Positions 4,650-18,398 of a DNA stretch of 64,000 bases are shown here, piece after piece. The notes under the pieces are model-generated. The model was not told where the DNA came from. It saw only the letters and a list, made by a program, of their open reading frames with translations, and did no database searches. The stretch comes from Verrucomicrobiota bacterium. GTDB taxonomy: Bacteria; Verrucomicrobiota; Verrucomicrobiia; Limisphaerales; UBA9464. The DNA lies in contig JAXMHR010000011.1 of NCBI GenBank assembly GCA_046346705.1, forward strand, positions 101,812 to 165,811. Direction: 5' to 3'. The position numbers were made by a program, and so were the translations under genes. Position 1 is the stretch's first letter; each line of letters starts with the position of its first letter.

Positions 4650-5814
4650 AGGGCAGGGAACAGGTCCACGCCGGGCTGACCGCGTTCAGGACATGCATCG
4701 AGCGGGCGTCGCCCTCGAGGACGAAGTCCATTTCGAGCTTCCGTGTGCGCAGGTGGATGAGTTGGGCGCGGATTCCGGGTCGGCCCCAGTCGCGGTAATC
4801 CTCGGTGCGGACCCCCGTGGCCAATTCCCCGGCGAGCGACACCAGATGGGGGCGGGAGTACTTGCGGAGTTCCTCGACGGCGAGACGCCGGAAGTCGAAT
4901 CCCGCGGAGAAGAACAACCCGAGGTCGCGCCAGGCGATTTCGACAAACTCCGCCGGGTCGAAGCGGTCCACGCCGGTGTACTGCTCGCGCCAGAAGGCGG
5001 GAATGGCGGTCGGGCCGATCTTGGCATGGCCATCCACCGTCACGGTGAAATGGACTCCAAGAAACGGATTCCGGAGGTCGGGAACGGGATAGATGTTGGT
5101 CCGGAATCCCGGGCCGGATTCCGAGCTGTAGAGGTAGAGGCCCTTGAAGGGGAGGATCCGGTAGTCCTGGGAGAATCCGAAATCGAGTGCGACGCGGTCG
5201 GCGTAGAGTCCCGCGCAGTTGACGACATAGCCCGCGTCCACCAGTCCGGCGGCGGAGTGGATCGTATCTCCGACGCGTCCAAGGTAGGCGGCGCCGGCCA
5301 GGACGCGGACACCCTCCCGACGGGCGTCGTCTCGCATCGCGGCGATGACCGCCGAGGGATCGGCGGTGGCGGTATCCGGCGACCAAAGGGCGCGTCCGCA
5401 TGTCTTCACCCGGGGCTCAATGCGGCGGGCTTCCTCCGCGGAAACCGGCTGCAGGCGGACGCCGTTGCGCGTGCCCCGGCGGAGCAATTCATCCAGCTGC
5501 GGGTGGTCTGCTTCGGAACGCGCGACCACCAGTTTGCCGCACGGGTTCAGCGCCAGTCCGCGCGACGTGATGTAGTCGCGGAGGGCGCGGTTGCCGTCAC
5601 GGCAGAAGCGCGCCTTCAGGGAGTCGGCGGAATAATAGAACCCCGCGTGCAGGACCCCGCTGTTGCGTCCACTGGCGTGCTGGCCGAGTTCCGGTTCCTT
5701 CTCGAGAAGGGTGACGGAGCGTCCGGGGTGGCGGCGCCGCAGTTCCCGGGCGACGCAGACACCGATGATGCCCCCGCCGATGACGAGGTAGTCGGTGGAG
5801 GGAAGGCGGGACAT
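4606..5814 (-). CDS. lhgO: L-2-hydroxyglutarate oxidase (FAD-dependent)
   Basis: The N-terminus DYLVIGGGIIGVCVARELRRR...LLEKE...HASGRNSGVLHAGFYYSADSLKARFCRDG is the LhgO signature. Length is 402 aa. Confidence 0.85.
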   Translation of the reverse strand: MSRLPSTDYLVIGGGIIGVCVARELRRRHPGRSVTLLEKEPELGQHASGRNSGVLHAGFYYSADSLKARFCRDGNRALRDYITSRGLALNPCGKLVVARSEADHPQLDELLRRGTRNGVRLQPVSAEEARRIEPRVKTCGRALWSPDTATADPSAVIAAMRDDARREGVRVLAGAAYLGRVGDTIHSAAGLVDAGYVVNCAGLYADRVALDFGFSQDYRILPFKGLYLYSSESGPGFRTNIYPVPDLRNPFLGVHFTVTVDGHAKIGPTAIPAFWREQYTGVDRFDPAEFVEIAWRDLGLFFSAGFDFRRLAVEELRKYSRPHLVSLAGELATGVRTEDYRDWGRPGIRAQLIHLRTRKLEMDFVLEGDARSMHVLNAVSPAWTCSLPFAAHVCDRITELGG

Positions 5815-5858
5815 GGCGGTCGGTCAGGCAGTGCAGATCTTCCGGTCCAACCCCGGGA

Positions 5859-6635
5859 TCACCATTTCTTCCAGGGGGCCTCCCCCTTCTGCCACATGCG
5901 CTCGAGGAGTTGCTGTTCCCGGTAGGTATCCATGCACTGCCAGAATCCGTCGTGGGCAAACGCCTTGAGCTGTCCCTCGCGGGCCAGTCGTTCCATGGGG
6001 CCGCGCTCGAAAATGCACTGGTCCCCGCCCTCGAGGTATTCCCCCACCCGGCGGTTAAGGACCATGAAGCCCCCGCTGATGTAGGCGGATTCTTGTTCGG
6101 GCTTTTCCCGGAAGGCGGTGATGGTCTTGCCGTCCATCGCCAGTTCGCCGAAGCGTCCGGTGGGTTTCACGGCAGTGACCGTGGCGATGGCTCCGTGGGA
6201 CCGGTGGAACTCGACGGCGCCATTCAGATTCGCATCCGTGACGCCGTCGCCGTAGGTGAAGAGAAAGGTGTCGTCGTGAATGTGCGCCAGGGCGCGCCGG
6301 AGGCGGCCGCCGGTCTGGGTCTCCAGGCCGGTTTCGAGGAGCGTCACCGTCCAGTCCTCCTCATCATGCGTGCTGTGGTACTGGATCTTCGGCTGGCGTC
6401 CCAGCTTCAGGGTGACGTCCGAAGTGTTCCACAGGTAGTTGCGGAAGTATTCCTTGATGACCTCGCCCTTGTAGCCGAGGCACAGGATGAACTCCTTGTG
6501 ACCGGCCGCGGCGTACAGCTTCATGATATGCCACAGGATGGGGCGGCCCCCGACGGGCACCATGGGCTTGGGACGGTATTCGGTCTCCTCACGCAGGCGC
6601 GTGCCCAGACCACCGCACAGGATGACGACTTTCAT
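5859..6635 (-). CDS. rfbF: glucose-1-phosphate cytidylyltransferase
   Basis: I chose the internal start MKVVILCGGLGTRLREETEYRPKPMVPVGGRPILWHIMKLYAAAGHKEFILCLGYKG, giving 258 aa, which is typical RfbF length and sequence. The upstream extension of track ORF 5859..7109 is Arg/Pro-rich and overlaps repeat element A. Confidence 0.9.
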   Translation of the reverse strand: MKVVILCGGLGTRLREETEYRPKPMVPVGGRPILWHIMKLYAAAGHKEFILCLGYKGEVIKEYFRNYLWNTSDVTLKLGRQPKIQYHSTHDEEDWTVTLLETGLETQTGGRLRRALAHIHDDTFLFTYGDGVTDANLNGAVEFHRSHGAIATVTAVKPTGRFGELAMDGKTITAFREKPEQESAYISGGFMVLNRRVGEYLEGGDQCIFERGPMERLAREGQLKAFAHDGFWQCMDTYREQQLLERMWQKGEAPWKKW

Positions 6636-6802: not shown

Positions 6803-6872
6803 GGACGTCTTCACACCCCTTCGGACGGGCATCCGCTTGCCTTGCGGGGGCGGGGTTTCGCATGGTCTCCGG

Positions 6873-7856
6873 ATGCGCATTCTTACCGGCATCCAGCCGA
6901 GTGGTGTCCTTCACCTGGGCAACTACTTCGGCGCGATGCTTCCAGCCATCGAACTCCAGCATCAGGGGGACGCGTACTATTTCATCGCGGACTACCACTC
7001 CATGACGTCGCTGACGGACCCGGTGCGGCGTCGCGAGTATTCCCGGGATGTCGCCCTCGACTTCCTCGCCTGCGGACTGGACCCCAAACGTTGTGTGTTC
7101 TGGAGGCAAAGCGATGTGCCGTCCGTGACGGAATTGGCGTGGATGCTGAGCACGGTAACCCCGATGGGTCTATTGGAACGGGCGACCAGCTACAAAGATA
7201 AGATGGCCAACCTGGCCGAGGGCGACATCGAGAAGGTCAACCACGGTCTCTTTGCGTACCCGGTTCTCATGGCGGCCGACATCCTCCTGTTTGACTCGAA
7301 TGTGGTGCCCGTGGGGCGGGATCAGAAGCAGCACCTGGAAATGACCCGGGACATCGCGGGCAAGTTCAACACGCTCTATGGGGAGGTGTTCGTGATCCCG
7401 GAACCGCGCATTCGGGAGGCGGTCGCGGTCGTCCCCGGAACCGACGGCCGCAAGATGAGCAAGAGCTACGGCAATACGATTGAGATCTTCACCGACGAGA
7501 AATCGCTGAAGAAAAAGATCATGGCCATCAAGACGGACAGCCGCCTGCCGGCCGAACCCAAGCCGGATGCCGACCAGAACATCGCCATCCAGCTGCTGAA
7601 GCTCGTTGCGCCGGCGGACGTGGCGTCCGATTTGGAAAACCGCCTGCGGGCCGGAGGCACCGGGTACGGGGATGTGAAGAAGGCATTGCTGGAGCATTGC
7701 TGGACTTACTTTGGCGCCGCCCGGCAGCGTCGTGCGGAGTTGGCGGCTGATCCCGGTTACGTGGAGTCGGTGCTGGCCGACGGCGCCGCCCGGGCGGAGG
7801 CGGTGGCATCCCGGGTCATTGCGCGGGCCCGGGCGGCATGCGGATTGGGGAAATGA
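6873..7856 (+). CDS. trpS: tryptophan--tRNA ligase
   Basis: Internal start MRILTGIQPSGVLHLGNYFGA (HIGH-type motif), KMSKSYGN (KMSKS motif), 327 aa. Confidence 0.92.
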   Translation: MRILTGIQPSGVLHLGNYFGAMLPAIELQHQGDAYYFIADYHSMTSLTDPVRRREYSRDVALDFLACGLDPKRCVFWRQSDVPSVTELAWMLSTVTPMGLLERATSYKDKMANLAEGDIEKVNHGLFAYPVLMAADILLFDSNVVPVGRDQKQHLEMTRDIAGKFNTLYGEVFVIPEPRIREAVAVVPGTDGRKMSKSYGNTIEIFTDEKSLKKKIMAIKTDSRLPAEPKPDADQNIAIQLLKLVAPADVASDLENRLRAGGTGYGDVKKALLEHCWTYFGAARQRRAELAADPGYVESVLADGAARAEAVASRVIARARAACGLGK

Positions 7857-11945: not shown

Positions 11946-12841
11946 CGAACCTCCTTGTGGGCGGTGTCTGCGGTTTTCCAGATCTGTTCGTCCGCCTGTT
12001 GGATCAGCGGAACAAACTGTTCCATCTCCGCGGGGAACCAGCGGATGTTTCGGTCGCGGTGATCGCGACTGCTGGGTTGCTCGGTCCGGTCTCCGGCGAG
12101 GAAGGCCCAGTTCATGGGGCGCGTGTAGTCGAACCAAAGACGATTACGGACGACGACGGCCTGACGAACCGCTTCCAAGTCGGGAACGATGAACCGTCCC
12201 CGGGAATCGGTTTCGGATCGGGAGCGGACTACGGGCCCGACGAGTCCTTCAGCCACCGCCCGCCCGACATGGGCATCCCCGACATCCGGCGAGGCGCCGG
12301 GTTGAAGGTCGAGGAAGGGGATGTTTCTCCGGGAAGCCAGGGTTCGAATGCCGGCGGCGTAGTTTGAAATCGCGGCGAGTCGATCAGGGGAGGATGGGAC
12401 ACTGGAGGGCGGAACCGGGGCCACCAGGATTTGACGGGGGGTCACGGCGTTCACCTCGTCGAGCAGGAGCGCGTAGGCCTCCAGGAAGCGGGGGAGTTCC
12501 TTGGGGCCGGCGAGGGATTCCATTTCGCCGAACTGGACGAGCACCACCGTGGCACCGGCCGAGCGCAGTTGTTGGGTCAGCGGGGGATAATTGAGTTCGC
12601 GCGGACGGGAGAAGACCGTGTCGCCTTCCCACGCGAGTCCGCGCCAGCGCAGTTGATCTGCGGGCCGGGCCGCGGCCACCAGCGATTCGGCATAGCCACC
12701 CTTTTCCAGAGCGACCATCCGGGTGCCTCCCAGAACCGCGACCACGTCGTGGGGTTGGAGGAGGGGGCGGTCCTGTCCAGCGGCGGCGGACAGTTCCATC
12801 GAAAGCAGCAGCATGCCGCAGAAAATGCGAACCGGTTTCAT
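11942..12841 (-). CDS. SGNH/GDSL-like hydrolase, secreted
   Basis: Internal start MKPVRIFCGMLLLSMELSAAAG (signal peptide). The overall layout is SGNH-like (VVAVLGGTRM, VVLVQFGEMES, NIPFLDL). Its stop overlaps the ATG of the downstream heme protein (ATGA at 11942-11945). Confidence 0.6.
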   Translation of the reverse strand: MKPVRIFCGMLLLSMELSAAAGQDRPLLQPHDVVAVLGGTRMVALEKGGYAESLVAAARPADQLRWRGLAWEGDTVFSRPRELNYPPLTQQLRSAGATVVLVQFGEMESLAGPKELPRFLEAYALLLDEVNAVTPRQILVAPVPPSSVPSSPDRLAAISNYAAGIRTLASRRNIPFLDLQPGASPDVGDAHVGRAVAEGLVGPVVRSRSETDSRGRFIVPDLEAVRQAVVVRNRLWFDYTRPMNWAFLAGDRTEQPSSRDHRDRNIRWFPAEMEQFVPLIQQADEQIWKTADTAHKEVR

Positions 12842-12869
12842 CGGAGAGCCGGGCGGAGTGTGCCCACGA
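12800..12869. repeat. 70-bp direct repeat, left copy (5' end and leader of the SGNH gene)
   Basis: Matches 16175..16244 with 6 mismatches in 70 nt by hand alignment. The spacing is 3375 bp. Confidence 0.85.
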
Positions 12870-12954
12870 GGGTTGGAAGGGCCAAGCCAGTTCGGAAACG
12901 GGTCAGACCGGCTGCGTGCGGTGGTCAGTCGCGCCACTGCGGAACAAATCCGTG

Positions 12955-13884
12955 CTAGGGAGCAACCCCTGGAAATGGATACGGTCCGTTCATTCGTTCC
13001 CAGAGCCAGAGAAAATCCGGATTATTCGGCGTACTGCGGGACCACTCGAAGAACTCCGTGTTGTTGCGAATCACCGGCGAAGTCCTCGGATCCCGCCATT
13101 TGTGCAACTCGGCATGCCCGTCGGCAAAGGTCATGGCGCCGACGCGGCCGTGACGCGCGGCCGGCACTCCCTCCCACAGCCCACGGGGTCCTCCGTGCCA
13201 GATGACCCGGAAGACGCCCAGATTGATCGTCGATTCATGCTCGTCGATGAACACGAAGATCTGCGACGGCGACGTCCGGTTGAAATCCGCGGACCGCAGA
13301 AACGCCGTGGGTGAGTAGCTCCATTCCTCGGATTCCGGAATCTCGGAATTCCCGCTGTGCCCCACGCCATCCCCCAGCACGATGTATTGATTCATCGAAT
13401 AGCTGCGAACCCGACTTGGCCCGCGGCGTCCGTAGATATCCATTGTGCTGCGGTCCGCGGGGCAATGAAAGACACCGGCCGTCTTCAGGTAGGGTCCCAA
13501 GTGTCCGGGCCCTGGAGCCAGCAGCAAACTGCTGTTGGTGCGGGCGCCGACGCGGTCGTCCCAGGGGCTCATGTAACCGTTCACCCATCGGGCGCCATTC
13601 GGAAACACCGCATCCGTTTCCGAAGGAGAAAGCCAGTCGTTGTGGTCCGGAGCGTAGAGCATCCAGGCCAACTGGAGTTGACGAAGATTGTTCAGGCAGG
13701 CGATGGCCTGCGCCCGATCCCGGGCTTTCTGCAGGGTGGGCAGCAGGAGCCCGGCGAGAATGGCAATGATGGCGATCACCACCAGAAGCTCGATCAGGGT
13801 GAATCCCGGCACCCCGCTCCGGACGGCGACCGAACGGGACGTCCCGACGCGACTCCGTCCTGATCGATTCCGTCCCGAACTCAT
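12955..13884 (-). CDS. prepilin-type N-terminal cleavage/methylation domain protein, H-X9-DG family (pseudopilin-like)
   Basis: [45 protein letters not shown]-terminus and a C-terminal [13 protein letters not shown] (H-X9-DG). Confidence 0.85.
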
Positions 13885-13896
13885 GGATACTCCCGG

Positions 13897-14661
13897 TCAC
13901 TCCGGTCGTCGCAACCGGAAGAACCGGTCGGCATCCTCCGGCGGAAGGTCGGCGGAGGTGCCCCCGGCGGGATAAGGCTCCCAAACAACCAGAGGCGACA
14001 GGCTGCGGGTGCTTTCCAGAATCCAACTGGATGTCCCCGGGGGCCAGTACAGGCGGACACCAGCGCTCTCAGGGAGAATCTCCGACGCAACGGGAATCGC
14101 CGGGGGAAACCCCGCCCGGATCGGTGCGTTAGGAACGGGATTCCAATCGAAACCACCCACCGTGAACAGGGTCTCCGGCTTGGAGTCCGGCCGAACAAAT
14201 CGAACCCACGCAAAGTGAGGCCCATCCTCGGTTCGAATCCTCACACCGATAAGAACATCAGTTCTCAATCCAGCGCCGATTGGGGAATTTCCTCCTGCCT
14301 GAAAATAATACCAGATGTTGGCTGACGAATCCCATTGCGCTATAAATCCGCAAAGAGGAGCGACATTCTGTTCCGTATTCGGGTTCAAATAGGATGGGCT
14401 CGAACCAGAAATCTCTGCGCCTGATTCGAAAAACGAATCCTTCGTGGTCCTTCCCAAGAGGACCGATCCATCGGTAGGAATCACGCCCGCACTCCCGGTC
14501 GCCAAGTCACCAACCAGGGAATACGAATACTCGTAAACCAGATCAGTGTTGCCATCCCCAATAAAATCAAACACTGCAAGATTGGTGCTGACCTGCGGGG
14601 GATCAGAAGCCAGCAACGAAACGCTCGCCAAGAAGAATGCCACTACACCCATTGGATTCAT
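13897..14661 (-). CDS. secreted hypothetical protein with C-terminal (Y/F)FRL tail module (copy 1, intact)
   Basis: Start chosen at MNPMGVVAFFLASVSLLASDPPQ (signal peptide). Ends ...WILESTRSLSPLVVWEPYPAGGTSADLPPEDADRFFRLRRPE. I recognise no family. Confidence 0.7.
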   Translation of the reverse strand: MNPMGVVAFFLASVSLLASDPPQVSTNLAVFDFIGDGNTDLVYEYSYSLVGDLATGSAGVIPTDGSVLLGRTTKDSFFESGAEISGSSPSYLNPNTEQNVAPLCGFIAQWDSSANIWYYFQAGGNSPIGAGLRTDVLIGVRIRTEDGPHFAWVRFVRPDSKPETLFTVGGFDWNPVPNAPIRAGFPPAIPVASEILPESAGVRLYWPPGTSSWILESTRSLSPLVVWEPYPAGGTSADLPPEDADRFFRLRRPE

Positions 14662-14965
14662 GCAGTGTTTTGGAAACCTGAAAATCTGAGCGTTTAATCG
14701 GGGGATGGCGCGTGGGTTTACGCGACTTTCGGGAAACATGGTAGGAAGTTGTCCGCCTTCCCGCAGAGTTTCAATTCGATTCCTTCCAGTGAGAGGCTTC
14801 TTTCGAATGGGTGCTGGTCTTGTGGGGTTGACCCACATGCGTCGAGGCATCGTTGAATCTTGAATCTAAGGAGACTCGGCCGGCAGGTACTTCGCCTCGG
14901 CTCGCCATCGCTCCGTGGCAGGCTGGTTGCAATCGAATCGTCTCGGAACTCATGGATACCTCCGC

Positions 14966-15731
14966 TCACTCCGGTCGTCGCAACCGGAAAAAGCGGTCGG
15001 CATCCTCCGGCGGAACGTCGGCGTAGGTGCCGCCGGCGGGATAAGGCTCCCAAACAACCGGAGGCGACAGGCTGCGGGTACTCTCCAGAATCCAACTGGA
15101 TGTCCCCGGGGGCCAGGACAGGCGGACACCGGCGCTCTCAGGGAGAATCTCCGACGCAACGGGAATCTCCGGGGAAACCCCGCCCGGATCGGTGCGTCAG
15201 GAACGGGATTCCAATCAAAACCACCCACCGTGAACAACGTCTCCGGCTTGGAGTCCGGCCGAACAAATCGAACCCACGCAAAGTGAACTTCAGTGTCTGC
15301 ATGCGAATTCGGGCGCCCACAATAACGTCGGTCCTCAGGCCAGCGCCGATCGGAACATTTCCACCCCCAAGAAAATAATGCCAAATCAGAGCATCTGGAT
15401 CCCATTGGGCAATAAACGCAGTCAACGGGAGTGCGTTCTGGCCCGACTTTGGATTCAAATAGGGTTGATTGGATCCTGAAACCTCGGTCCCTCGTTCAAA
15501 AAACGGATCCTTTGCTGTCCCTTCCAAGATCACCGTATCGTCAGCAGGTAATACGCCTCCTCCCCCACTCGCTATATCACCCACGAGAGAATATGAGTAT
15601 CTGTAAATTAGGTCAGAGTTTCCGTCTCCAGTAAAATTAAACACTGCAAGATTGGTGCTCACCTGCGGGGGATCAGAGGCCAGCAACGAAACGCTCGCCA
15701 AGAAGAATGCCACTACACCCATTGGATTCAT
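14966..15731 (-). pseudogene. frameshifted paralog of 13897..14661 (copy 2)
   Basis: The signal peptide is identical. The reading frame breaks near 15290-15300 (ARIRMQT then out of frame; HFAWVRFVRPDSKPETLFTVGGFDWNPV continues in another frame). It breaks again near 15165, where CCGGGG replaces the CCGGGGG of copy 1. The span is 766 nt versus 765 nt in copy 1. Confidence 0.75.
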
Positions 15732-16026
15732 GCAGTGTTTTGGAAACCTGAAAGCCTGAGCGTTTAATCGGGGCATGGCGCCTGGGTTTACGCGACTTTC
15801 GGCAAACATGGTAGGAAGTTGTCCGCCTTCCCGCAGAGTTTCAATTCGATTCCTTCCAGTGAGAGACTTCTTTCGATGGGTGCTGGTCTTGTGGGGTTGA
15901 CCCACATGCGTCGAGGCATCTTGAATCTAAGGAGACTCGGCCGGCAGTTACTTCGCCTCGGCTCGCCATCGCTCCGTGGCGCTTTGGTCGCAATCGAATC
16001 GTCCCGAAACTCAAGGATACCTCTGC

Positions 16027-16086
16027 TCACTCCGGTCGTCGCAACCGGAAAAAGCGGTCGGCATCCTCCGGCGGAACGTCGGCGTC
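16027..16086 (-). pseudogene. remnant of a third copy (last ~18-20 codons only)
   Basis: The reverse strand reads DVPPEDADRFFRLRRPE-stop. Similarity to copy 2 stops at 16086. Confidence 0.7.
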
Positions 16087-16174
16087 AACAAGGCAACTGA
16101 GACTGCATACCTCACACAACAACCGAAGACTCTAGTTCTCATTTCCTTTCCCTCCGTTTAATTAAAATAAACAC

Positions 16175-16244
16175 CGAGAGCAGTAGCCCGCCGCAGAAGA
16201 TGCGAACCGGTTTCATCGGAGAGCCGGGCGCAGTGTGCCCACGA
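16175..16244. repeat. 70-bp direct repeat, right copy, carrying a 25-aa stub ORF (16139..16216)
   Basis: Copy of the SGNH gene leader and first codons. The stub reads MKPVRIFCGGLLLSVFILIKRRERK-stop and runs into an AT-rich filler. Confidence 0.85.
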
Positions 16245-16265
16245 ACAAGGGAAGCGCGAGCCTGG

Positions 16266-16328: not shown

Positions 16329-18398
16329 TCAGGGCATCAGTCGGAAATACCGGGTCTGACCACTCGTCGGAACAACGACGGAGTTTCCGGAAACGCCGGG
16401 AACGGTCTGCCAGTCGGGCTGGGCCAGGGATCCGCTTCCCTTCAAGGTGAGTCCGGTGGTGTCTCCGGTCCAAGTGAGCCGCAGGCCTTCGGACGTGACC
16501 GCCGCGGAGATCGCGGGAGCTTCGGGGGCGATGGAGTACAATCCGAAGTCGTCGACACCCCAGTACCAACTGTCGGTCCCCGCATAGGTGAAGCGGAGGC
16601 GCACGGTCTTCGCGCCGTCGGCTTTGGGTAGACGGTATTTCTCGATGCGTTTGGATTCCTTTGAGTTGTCGTCCACACGACCCTGAATGAACGGTGCCAG
16701 CGACGCATTGATCGGGGCTCCGATAAAGGCGCCATAGGTTCCGCCTACGTCATTTCCTGCATCGTCGGAGTAAACGGCGATGTCATTGGCCGACGTGGTC
16801 AGCGTGGCCTCAGCGTCCACGTCGCCCGCTTCGGTCCGGATGATGTCTCCCGCGTTGATCAAGTACGCGACGGGCAGCCAATTGGCGCCGCCATCCACCG
16901 AATACTCCAGAGCCCCAATGCTGTCCTGATTCTGTTCGTAGAGACTCTTGAAGACCACGTACACCGAATCCTTCCCGGTGAGATTGTAGTCGGGGGTTGT
17001 GATGGACAGGACCTGGCTGCGTCCGTTGCGGTATCCGGAGTCGCCGAAGAGCATCCGACCCGACGCCAGCGGTCCGTCAACCTCGGCTCCGTTGAGGACA
17101 TTGTTTCGGTTCGGCGTGAGCACGCGCTGGTAATCGGTTCCCCAGTCCGCCGGATTTTCCGGATTGCTGTACGTTACAAAGGATCCCGTGAAGCGGTTCA
17201 CATCCAATACGACCCAGTTGGCAAACGAGGCGGAGTCCAGATTCCCGAGATCGAGATCGGGGTTCTGAACCTCGGTGTGACTGGTGAGGGTCCAGCCCGC
17301 GGGAACCTGGCCTTCGGGGGTGGAATCGAAGTTCTCGAAGTAGAGCGGCGCGGGGAGGACGATGTTTTCGTACTGGACCGTGGTGAAGGATCCCTTGGCG
17401 GAGATCGCGGTGGGTTTCGAAGCGTCGTCCGTGAAGCTGAGTTCGTAGGTGTGAGCGGAGAGGGGAAGGGAAATGCCGGCATTGGTGTAGCTGACGGTGA
17501 CCAGTCCGTTGGCGGACGTGACGACTGGCTGAACCGACGCTCCGTCGAGCTTCAACCCGATGCTGGACAGCAGCACGGAACTGGTGCCGTTGGTGATCGT
17601 GGCGTTGAACCGGATCCGCGGTTCGACGCCCGTCGCTCCGTCCGCCGGGCGGATCGAGAGGAGGCGGGGCAGATTGCTCGAGGGCGCGCCAATCGTGAAC
17701 GCCTCGCTGGCCAGCACGTCGTAGCCGTCGTTTCGCAGGAAGAAGGCGACGTACCGGCCCGGGGTGGTGAGGCCACCGGAGAACTTGACCGATCCGTCGG
17801 TCAGGGCGACCGCGCCGTTTTGGGTTCCATCCACGTAGAGGTAGCGCGTCGAGGAGATTCCGGAAGTCCCGGGTACTTCGTTTTCCTTGTAAAGACCGAT
17901 CCAATCGAGGGCGTTGCCTGGGCCTGATGCAAACGTCACCGTGATGTCTTCATCCGTTGTGTAGAGGCGTTTCGCGACGTGCACCGTCGGGGTGCCGGCC
18001 TCCACGACCTGGAAGGTGGTTTCCGCCGCGATGGTGTAGCCGTCATTGAGGAGCAGGTAGGCCTTCCAGGTTCCCGCGAAGCTGAGTCCTCCGGGAAATG
18101 GGATCACGCCTTCCGTAAGTCCCGTTGACCCCGCCCGGGTTCCGTCCACGTAGAACCACAGGGTCGACGTGGTTCCCTGGGCTCCCGGGACCGCGTCCGC
18201 GGGATAAATGCCGATCCAATCGAGGGGACGGCCCGGACCACCGGAGAATGCGATGGAGATGTCCTCCCCGATGGCGTAGCTATCGTGATTCGCCACCACG
18301 CTTGCGGTTTGTGCGGCGACGGCGAGCGGGAGGATGCCGATCAGCCCGGTCGCCCAGCGGAGGAGTCGGGAGAATGGAGACTGGAGGTTGGCTTTCAT
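16329..18398 (-). CDS. large secreted protein: two DWIG(I/L)Y repeat modules, Ig-like region, MAM/choice-of-anchor-J-like domain, (Y/F)FRL tail
   Basis: Signal peptide MKANLQSPFSRLLRWATGLIGILPLAVAAQT. Two ~115-aa internal repeats. ENFDSTPEGQVPAGWTL and RLRFTYAGTDSWYWGVDDFGLY resemble the choice-of-anchor-J/MAM style. Ends ...GQTRYFRLMP. Confidence 0.75.
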   Translation of the reverse strand: MKANLQSPFSRLLRWATGLIGILPLAVAAQTASVVANHDSYAIGEDISIAFSGGPGRPLDWIGIYPADAVPGAQGTTSTLWFYVDGTRAGSTGLTEGVIPFPGGLSFAGTWKAYLLLNDGYTIAAETTFQVVEAGTPTVHVAKRLYTTDEDITVTFASGPGNALDWIGLYKENEVPGTSGISSTRYLYVDGTQNGAVALTDGSVKFSGGLTTPGRYVAFFLRNDGYDVLASEAFTIGAPSSNLPRLLSIRPADGATGVEPRIRFNATITNGTSSVLLSSIGLKLDGASVQPVVTSANGLVTVSYTNAGISLPLSAHTYELSFTDDASKPTAISAKGSFTTVQYENIVLPAPLYFENFDSTPEGQVPAGWTLTSHTEVQNPDLDLGNLDSASFANWVVLDVNRFTGSFVTYSNPENPADWGTDYQRVLTPNRNNVLNGAEVDGPLASGRMLFGDSGYRNGRSQVLSITTPDYNLTGKDSVYVVFKSLYEQNQDSIGALEYSVDGGANWLPVAYLINAGDIIRTEAGDVDAEATLTTSANDIAVYSDDAGNDVGGTYGAFIGAPINASLAPFIQGRVDDNSKESKRIEKYRLPKADGAKTVRLRFTYAGTDSWYWGVDDFGLYSIAPEAPAISAAVTSEGLRLTWTGDTTGLTLKGSGSLAQPDWQTVPGVSGNSVVVPTSGQTRYFRLMP

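Follow-up and report, generated by a model that had tools for sequence, protein, structure and literature searches.

A stretch of 64,000 nucleotides (nt) from a Verrucomicrobiota bacterium (GenBank assembly GCA_046346705.1, contig JAXMHR010000011.1, positions 101,812 to 165,811), called the window below, contains a tandem array of a 1.07-kb unit. The array is probably an ordinary pair of working paralogues, encoding ~250-amino-acid (aa) secreted proteins of Verrucomicrobiales, with a relic stub upstream, and not a set of cassettes for surface variation. It is likely that the conserved ends of these functional paralogues have been homogenised by exchange between the units and that their N-terminal domains have been kept distinct. 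Both units are complete genes, and the frameshifted form of the second is confined to this assembly. The locus was found in many activated-sludge and wastewater metagenomes, and its host is a sewage-sludge Verrucomicrobiales bacterium.

Unit 1 (13863 to 14931), unit 2 (14932 to 15992) and the stub of a third unit (15993 to 16086) all lie on the minus strand. The start-to-start spacing is 1069–1070 nt and then 1061 nt. The first-pass annotation, which was made from the letters alone, had described a 1.07-kb tandem duplication with a partial third copy of ~18–20 codons, and both points were confirmed; the third copy consists of the last 20 codons. From 5′ to 3′, the order is a stub of a GDSL-like gene, AT-rich filler, the stub of unit 3, leader 2, copy 2, the spacer J2, leader 1, copy 1, and a pseudopilin-like gene. 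Each protein would consist of a signal peptide, a fast-evolving N-terminal beta domain (the N-domain, encoded by the core of the unit), and a conserved C-terminal module (the C-module, encoded by the tail).

The identity between the two units in a global alignment is not uniform. In windows of 50 nt, it is 0.84–1.00 in the leader and signal peptide, 0.58–0.70 in the core, and 0.94–0.96 in the tail. Taken as whole segments, the shared leader, signal peptide, and C-module are 93–100% identical. The diverged block (Table 1) shows 122 differences in 345 columns (35.4%) versus 49 in 726 (6.7%) outside it. The maximum chi-square with two breakpoints was 143, a value that was reached by none of 200 permutations. 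The near-identical ends and the diverged core noticed at first sight were thus substantiated. Even the count by eye of ~17 differences in the tail was close; the 303 aligned coding nt contain 16 substitutions, and there is also a single 1-nt indel.

For the core, the synonymous divergence (dS) between copy 1 and copy 2 is 1.88; for the C-module it is 0.12, and for the signal peptide 0.11. The non-coding leaders are ~96% identical. Synonymous and non-coding sites of the flanks are ~15-fold less diverged than synonymous sites of the core. Judging from the sharp identity breakpoints and this contrast, constraint alone is no explanation for the mosaic. The non-synonymous divergence (dN) of the core is 0.24 with a dN/dS ratio of 0.13, which indicates that both cores evolved as working protein-coding sequences. 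The comparison shows the two N-domain cores to be, by all appearances, old, separately maintained, and under purifying selection.

A point of reference between species is L002 (GCA_016793645.1), a syntenic relative represented by a Verrucomicrobiales metagenome-assembled genome. Background genes of the window and L002 differ with dS of 0.48–0.60 and dN of 0.07–0.08. The C-module of the family, with dS of 0.36–0.42, diverges at about the background rate. The N-domain is far beyond the background, with dN of 0.69–0.76 and saturated dS. The flank dS of 0.12 within one genome is well below the distance between orthologues, which is the signature of concerted evolution.

The exchange between units can be followed among samples. 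Hereafter, X1 to X17 are wastewater or activated-sludge metagenome runs, searched as Logan contigs; L001 to L015 are assembled contigs; and P0001 and P0002 are matched proteins. Copy 1 is matched exactly by contigs of X1, X5, X7, and X9. At least five forms of the inter-unit junction and leader were observed, with nested patches of leader 2 that have different end points. The first form, spacer J2 followed by leader 1, is present in the window, X9, and L001. The second form, in X6 and X10, has J2 followed by a short patch of leader 2, characterized by an 8-nt deletion and T at 14887. The patch is longer in the third form, in X12, which additionally has A at 14796 and a 1-nt deletion at 14806. 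The fourth form, in X5, has the spacer J3 of the upstream junction, a patch of leader 2, and then leader 1. In the fifth form, in X1, X2, and X7, J3 and leader 2 are identical to the upstream junction; in X7, a single contig runs from tail 2 through J3 into leader 2. The tails are exchanged as well. In a 455-nt contig of X10, core 2 is followed by type-1 tail, exact over at least 204 nt, and the end of the tail and J2 stay type 2. Nested tracts with differing end points are a prediction of recurrent conversion or unequal exchange between the units.

A change of copy number may be implied in one case. L003, a short-read SPAdes contig of 2.4 kb from another study, contains one unit only, in which core 2 crosses over to a type-1 tail between 15198 and 15168 and is followed by the pseudopilin-like gene. 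It may be a real unequal-crossover deletion and is tentatively kept as a case of copy-number variation; its coverage of 2.9× is too thin to rely on, and one of the switches falls in a shared stretch of 75 nt. Taken together, these sequence comparisons show that recurrent gene conversion or unequal exchange between units has evidently preserved the near-identity of the flanks.

The cores were not seen to take part in this mixing. In every run, they are either type 1 or type 2 with 0–1 mismatch, and they are the same in samples from 2015 to 2025. The window has two cores, and there are two core types among the matches of at least 70% identity. The recombinant cores that the first pass had suggested looking for were not found; among close relatives, there was no chimeric core and no third core type in the Logan contigs, in which rare variants are hidden.

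Copy 2 is split over three frames in this assembly: residues 1–145 with 70% identity, residues 149–184 with 97%, and residues 184–254 with 90%. Two lesions cause the frameshifts, and the third lesion replaces a conserved Tyr with His beside an invariant Trp (Table 1). The lesions were compared with samples from eight studies plus two independent assemblies. The TG insertion is absent at full depth in X1–X4, X6, X9, X10, X11, and X16/17, and likewise in L003 and L001. Five G residues, instead of the four in this assembly, are present wherever a type-2-specific contig covers the G-run (X1–X4, X6, X9, X11, and X12), and also in L003. All of these samples have A at 15380, which restores the Tyr, and L001 also lacks this substitution. 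Copy 2 is intact in X1–X4, X6, X9, X10, X11, X12, and X16, and in L003, whose product P0002 is a full-length type-2 protein. The claim of at least two frame disruptions was thus accurate, there being exactly two, but it holds for this assembly only; both frameshifts are missing from all other samples with coverage.

In the adjoining 13.3 kb, there are no indels and at most one substitution in comparison with X1, X2, and X6. Three private lesions within 210 nt, straddling the 3′ boundary of identity, do not look like clock-like decay. They reflect either a local consensus error or a single, very recent event that produced clustered mutations where the homology ends on the 3′ side. Such clustering could arise, for example, from error-prone synthesis in a conversion that ended at this boundary.

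It is conceivable why conversion tracts end at the core. The ~35% divergence would block heteroduplex formation, or selection would preserve two different N-domains. The C-module would serve a common task, for example sorting or docking to the pseudopilin-like partner encoded next to it. The N-domain would carry a specificity that differs between the paralogues.

Several points weigh against the interpretation as homogenised working paralogues. The population data are Logan contigs only (k = 31), in which markers more than ~30 nt apart cannot be phased and depths are 3–20× and noisy. They conceal rare variants, so that core switching at low frequency is not detectable in them. Scans of the leader gave no Rfam match, no sigma-70 consensus, and no promoter or terminator. 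No RNA run carrying the locus was found. Among curated families and Protein Data Bank (PDB) folds, there was no match giving a function to the product of copy 1. In addition, a recent duplication with an imported foreign core would give low flank divergence too.

In that scenario, a recent tandem duplication (flank dS ~0.1) was followed by the replacement of one core with a divergent allele from another strain through the conserved flanks, with no long-term concerted evolution. It is consistent with the low flank divergence and the sharp boundaries. The divergence of the N-domains from L002, far above the background, indicates that divergent alleles are available in the gene pool, and the conserved C-module and pseudopilin-like gene are suitable recombination anchors. 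However, no donor lineage with one core alone was found except the doubtful L003, both cores share the atypical G+C content at third codon positions (GC3), and the nested, sample-specific patches in leader and tail show continuing exchange between units regardless of how the second core was acquired. We consider allelic replacement unlikely. It differs from the concerted evolution of two maintained paralogues in history only, and the evidence for continuing exchange stands in both.

The first-pass annotation compared the homogenised flanks, variable core, and silent neighbour with an expression site and its silent cassette. Copy 1 would be expressed, and the core of copy 2, a silent donor, would be copied into copy 1, so that a surface protein varies. 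In favour of this model, the mosaic of identity exists, this assembly has frameshifts in copy 2, core 2 is joined to a type-1 tail in L003 and X10, and in L003 the gene with core 2 lies directly before the pseudopilin-like gene. The inter-unit recombination that this comparison implied is borne out by the dS contrast and the nested patches, but the silent-cassette part of it is not. The supposed donor has its own leader, 92–100% identical to that of copy 1, with an ATG and a signal peptide, and its frame is open in all other samples. There are just two core types among close relatives, each invariant across studies from 2015 to 2025, and chimeric cores were not found. The configuration of L003 is equally explained by an unequal-crossover deletion or misassembly. 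The survey of relatives, which had also been suggested, revealed arrays of two to at least three copies in a distant relative, but these consist of intact genes. A silent-cassette system is thus very improbable.

A diversity-generating retroelement or other local mutator that targets the N-domain might raise its dS along with its dN, as is seen in every pair compared, and might leave the low GC3 seen in all lineages. In the differences between the cores, however, there is no adenine bias: of 120 differences, copy 1 has A at 28 and copy 2 has A at 35. There are 65 transitions and 55 transversions, the core dN/dS is as low as 0.13, and cores identical in the samples from 2015 to 2025 are stable on that time scale. 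Such a mutator is highly improbable here.

Flanks ~95% identical are prone to misassembly, and copy 2 has private lesions, but the stitching of two strain alleles in tandem is scarcely credible because the independent long-read contig L001 (69.5 kb, noisy) is collinear with the window across both units, contigs of X6, X7, X9, X10, and X12 extend from tail 2 across the spacer to the leader, and each core has the full depth of the flanks and not half of it. In X1, the depths are 13.3 for core 1 and 16.4 for core 2 versus 11.8–13.1 for the flanks, and in X6, they are 6.4 and 8.0 versus 6.9–7.9. Both cores at about flank depth in the same samples, together with the collinearity of L001, indicate that the tandem pair is real.

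Table 1. Features of the tandem array and its surroundings in the window.
Feature	Position	Strand	Description
Pseudopilin-like gene, 309 aa	12955–13884	-	Starts 13 nt after the copy 1 stop; PF07963 and TIGR02532 prepilin-type N-terminal methylation motif; weak DUF1559 match
Copy 1 coding sequence, intact, 254 aa	13897–14661	-	Signal peptide, variable N-domain (type 1 core), conserved C-terminal module; from open reading frame and translation; identical to P0001
Diverged core block, unit 1	14219–14561	-	Breakpoints by maximum chi-square; paralogous block of unit 2 at ~15287–15631
Leader 1, non-coding 5′ region of copy 1	14662–14931	-	GC-poor; 92–100% identical to leader 2 except for an 8-nt indel
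Spacer J2 between units	14932–14965	-	Relic left over from the start (~35 nt) of the pseudopilin-like gene downstream; aligns with 13863–13884
Copy 2 coding sequence (type 2 core)	14966–15731	-	Three frames in this assembly; intact in other samples
G-run, frameshift 2	15171–15174	-	4 G here, 5 G elsewhere; extra G placed behind 15170 elsewhere
Private 2-nt insertion, frameshift 1	15300–15301	-	TG on the coding strand; this assembly only
Private substitution	15380	-	G here, A elsewhere; Tyr to His beside invariant Trp
Leader 2, 5′ region of copy 2	15732–15992	-	From unit alignment
Unit 3 stub, 94 nt	15993–16086	-	Spacer J3 (15993–16026), stop codon and last 20 codons of the tail module (16027–16086)
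Stub of GDSL-like gene, 5′ end	16172–16257	-	Repeat D5, 85% identical to 12797–12882; upstream edge of the block

The repeat unit consists of the leader, the gene, and the start of the next gene, as is indicated by the spacers, which are relics of the start of the pseudopilin-like gene. J2 is 83% identical to the start of the gene with the N_methyl motif in L004 to L009. In the unit 3 stub, the last 20 codons were matched by tblastn at 16089–16030, and the stub begins, on its 5′ side, with 61 nt that match the end of tail 2 exactly. In a sensitive blastn search, the leader had no homologue outside the host species; the sole source found was the 35-nt relic of the pseudopilin start. The five differences between units at 14684–14733 are all non-synonymous in the upstream in-frame open reading frame, which argues that the leader is non-coding. 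The upstream in-frame ATG at 14739 was rejected as the true start for this reason, and also because 14661 corresponds to the start of the other family members.

L002 likewise has a repeat of the 5′ end of the GDSL-like gene, a 377-nt stub (5525–5896) upstream of its single family gene. The presence of the stub in the window and L002 indicates that, in both species, the block of family gene and pseudopilin-like gene lies between a GDSL stub and the full GDSL gene.

The pairing of the family gene with the pseudopilin-like gene downstream is conserved in relatives (L004 to L009, L013, and L014). The pseudopilin-like gene of the window is 91% identical in nucleotides and 94% in amino acids to that of L004 (6772–7701; L004 to L009), with dS of 0.34. 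The gene neighbourhood of L004 to L009 is unrelated, and the C-module beside the pseudopilin-like gene is 72% identical in nucleotides (dS 1.34), which makes the gene junction a second boundary of the mosaic. In L002, the pseudopilin-like gene (6854–7036; window 13677–13016) is a 60-aa remnant with an internal deletion of ~660 nt. Logan depth rises to 100–500× at 13716–13884. This spike is explained by the conserved methylation motif of pseudopilin-like genes from many other organisms, which maps there, and not by copy number. A literature search on DUF1559 and on pseudopilin with Verrucomicrobia gave nothing specific.

The product of copy 1 matches no Pfam-A or NCBIfam family at E ≤ 0.1. Its AlphaFold2 model is all-beta with two domains (mean predicted local distance difference test score, pLDDT, 70.5), and no PDB fold matched it at E ≤ 0.001, the best E being 0.075. 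A word-indexed search with copy 1 returned 12 proteins. A profile search against 1.84 billion representatives returned 235 proteins at E ≤ 0.001, mostly of ~250 aa, and parts of the family profile recur within large multi-domain secreted proteins. In the family alignment, the C-terminal ~105 residues, ending in FFRLRRPE, are almost invariant, and the N-domain is poorly conserved. In the window, the last ~85 residues of a 689-aa secreted protein (16329–18398, minus strand) align with the tail module of the family (hhalign probability 75%, E = 2.6e-5). The two C-termini may represent a shared sorting or docking domain ending in (Y/F)FRL.

The core of the window is AT-rich, as had been noticed at first pass; its GC content is 0.44–0.52 across most of its length versus 0.64 for the window. 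However, the leader is GC-poor too, and the composition of the core is a family-wide trait and not the mark of a cassette. GC3 is 0.48 and 0.44 in the two cores, 0.71 in the tail, and 0.73–0.77 in neighbouring genes. In all family members checked, it is 0.44–0.53 in N-domain codons 28–143 and 0.68–0.71 in the C-modules of the same genes. Host genes mostly show 0.73–0.81, with the exception of 0.59 in one neighbouring gene of 1308 aa in L004. The low GC3 of the N-domain could result from the absence of GC-biased conversion, foreign origin, or local mutation bias.

Arrays are also present in two contigs of the Joint Genome Institute (JGI) metagenome Ga0268299. L014 (1–2560) has a tail stub, two intact copies, and the pseudopilin-like gene, and L015 (1–3246) has the pseudopilin-like gene and then at least three intact copies; the contigs end inside the arrays. 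Between L015_C and L015_D, dS is 2.6 in the N-domain and 0.22 in the C-module. These arrays indicate that the family has repeatedly stacked intact paralogues with variable heads in tandem. N-domain dS and dN are both raised in every pair compared.

Similar arrangements are known from other bacteria. Helicobacter pylori babA and babB, as well as sabA and sabB, are paralogues for outer-membrane adhesins that are nearly the same at both ends, 5′ and 3′, and diverge in the middle part, where the specificity resides. The bab genes occupy different loci, and conversion demonstrably transfers their middle region and switches expression. As in babA/babB, the conserved ends are used for conversion here, and strains vary in mosaic pattern and copy number. 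In contrast, the present array is tandem, conversion is seen in the flanks only, and the protein family is unrelated. The pilS cassettes of Neisseria are many, promoterless, and 5′-truncated, and they donate to one expression site at high frequency. The array resembles pilE/pilS in the conserved segments flanking variable ones and in the associated pilin-like gene, but both of its genes are complete and are intact in the population, and their cores are stable.

As in the concerted evolution of tufA/tufB, the paralogues within a genome are closer than orthologues in the converted segments, including synonymous sites. Unlike tuf, where the whole gene is homogenised, the central block escapes, and the result is a mosaic. 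Flagellin and type IV pilin genes likewise combine a conserved module, presumed to serve assembly or docking, with a fast-diverging and often AT-richer exposed domain, and their overall dN/dS is below 1. The family described here has no sequence or fold relationship to them, its conserved part is C-terminal, and the protein itself is not a pilin.

Gene conversion as a mechanism is already well known. The array is a clean case of segmental concerted evolution in uncultured bacteria, whose recombination can be traced through public metagenomes of 2015 to 2025. A misreading that is easy to fall into is corrected as well, since the "silent" copy is silent in one assembly only.

We also propose, as a speculation with rather low odds, that the family is a modular specificity subunit of a pseudopilin-based fibre or secretion apparatus in Verrucomicrobiota. 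The C-module would dock to the pseudopilin-like protein encoded alongside, the N-domain would be a swappable binding head, and the flanks would be recombination handles by which strains and species exchange heads or stack them in tandem arrays. If this is true, cassette exchange takes place at the population level and is not antigenic variation within a clone. It would explain the N-domains diverged ~10-fold above background between sister species, the family-wide low GC3, and the arrays of at least three copies. The family itself, which has no annotation and whose N-domain is hypervariable, is linked to the pseudopilin-like genes that are very numerous in Verrucomicrobiota and Planctomycetota. 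Such a partner, with its variable head, offers a useful way into the role of those genes.

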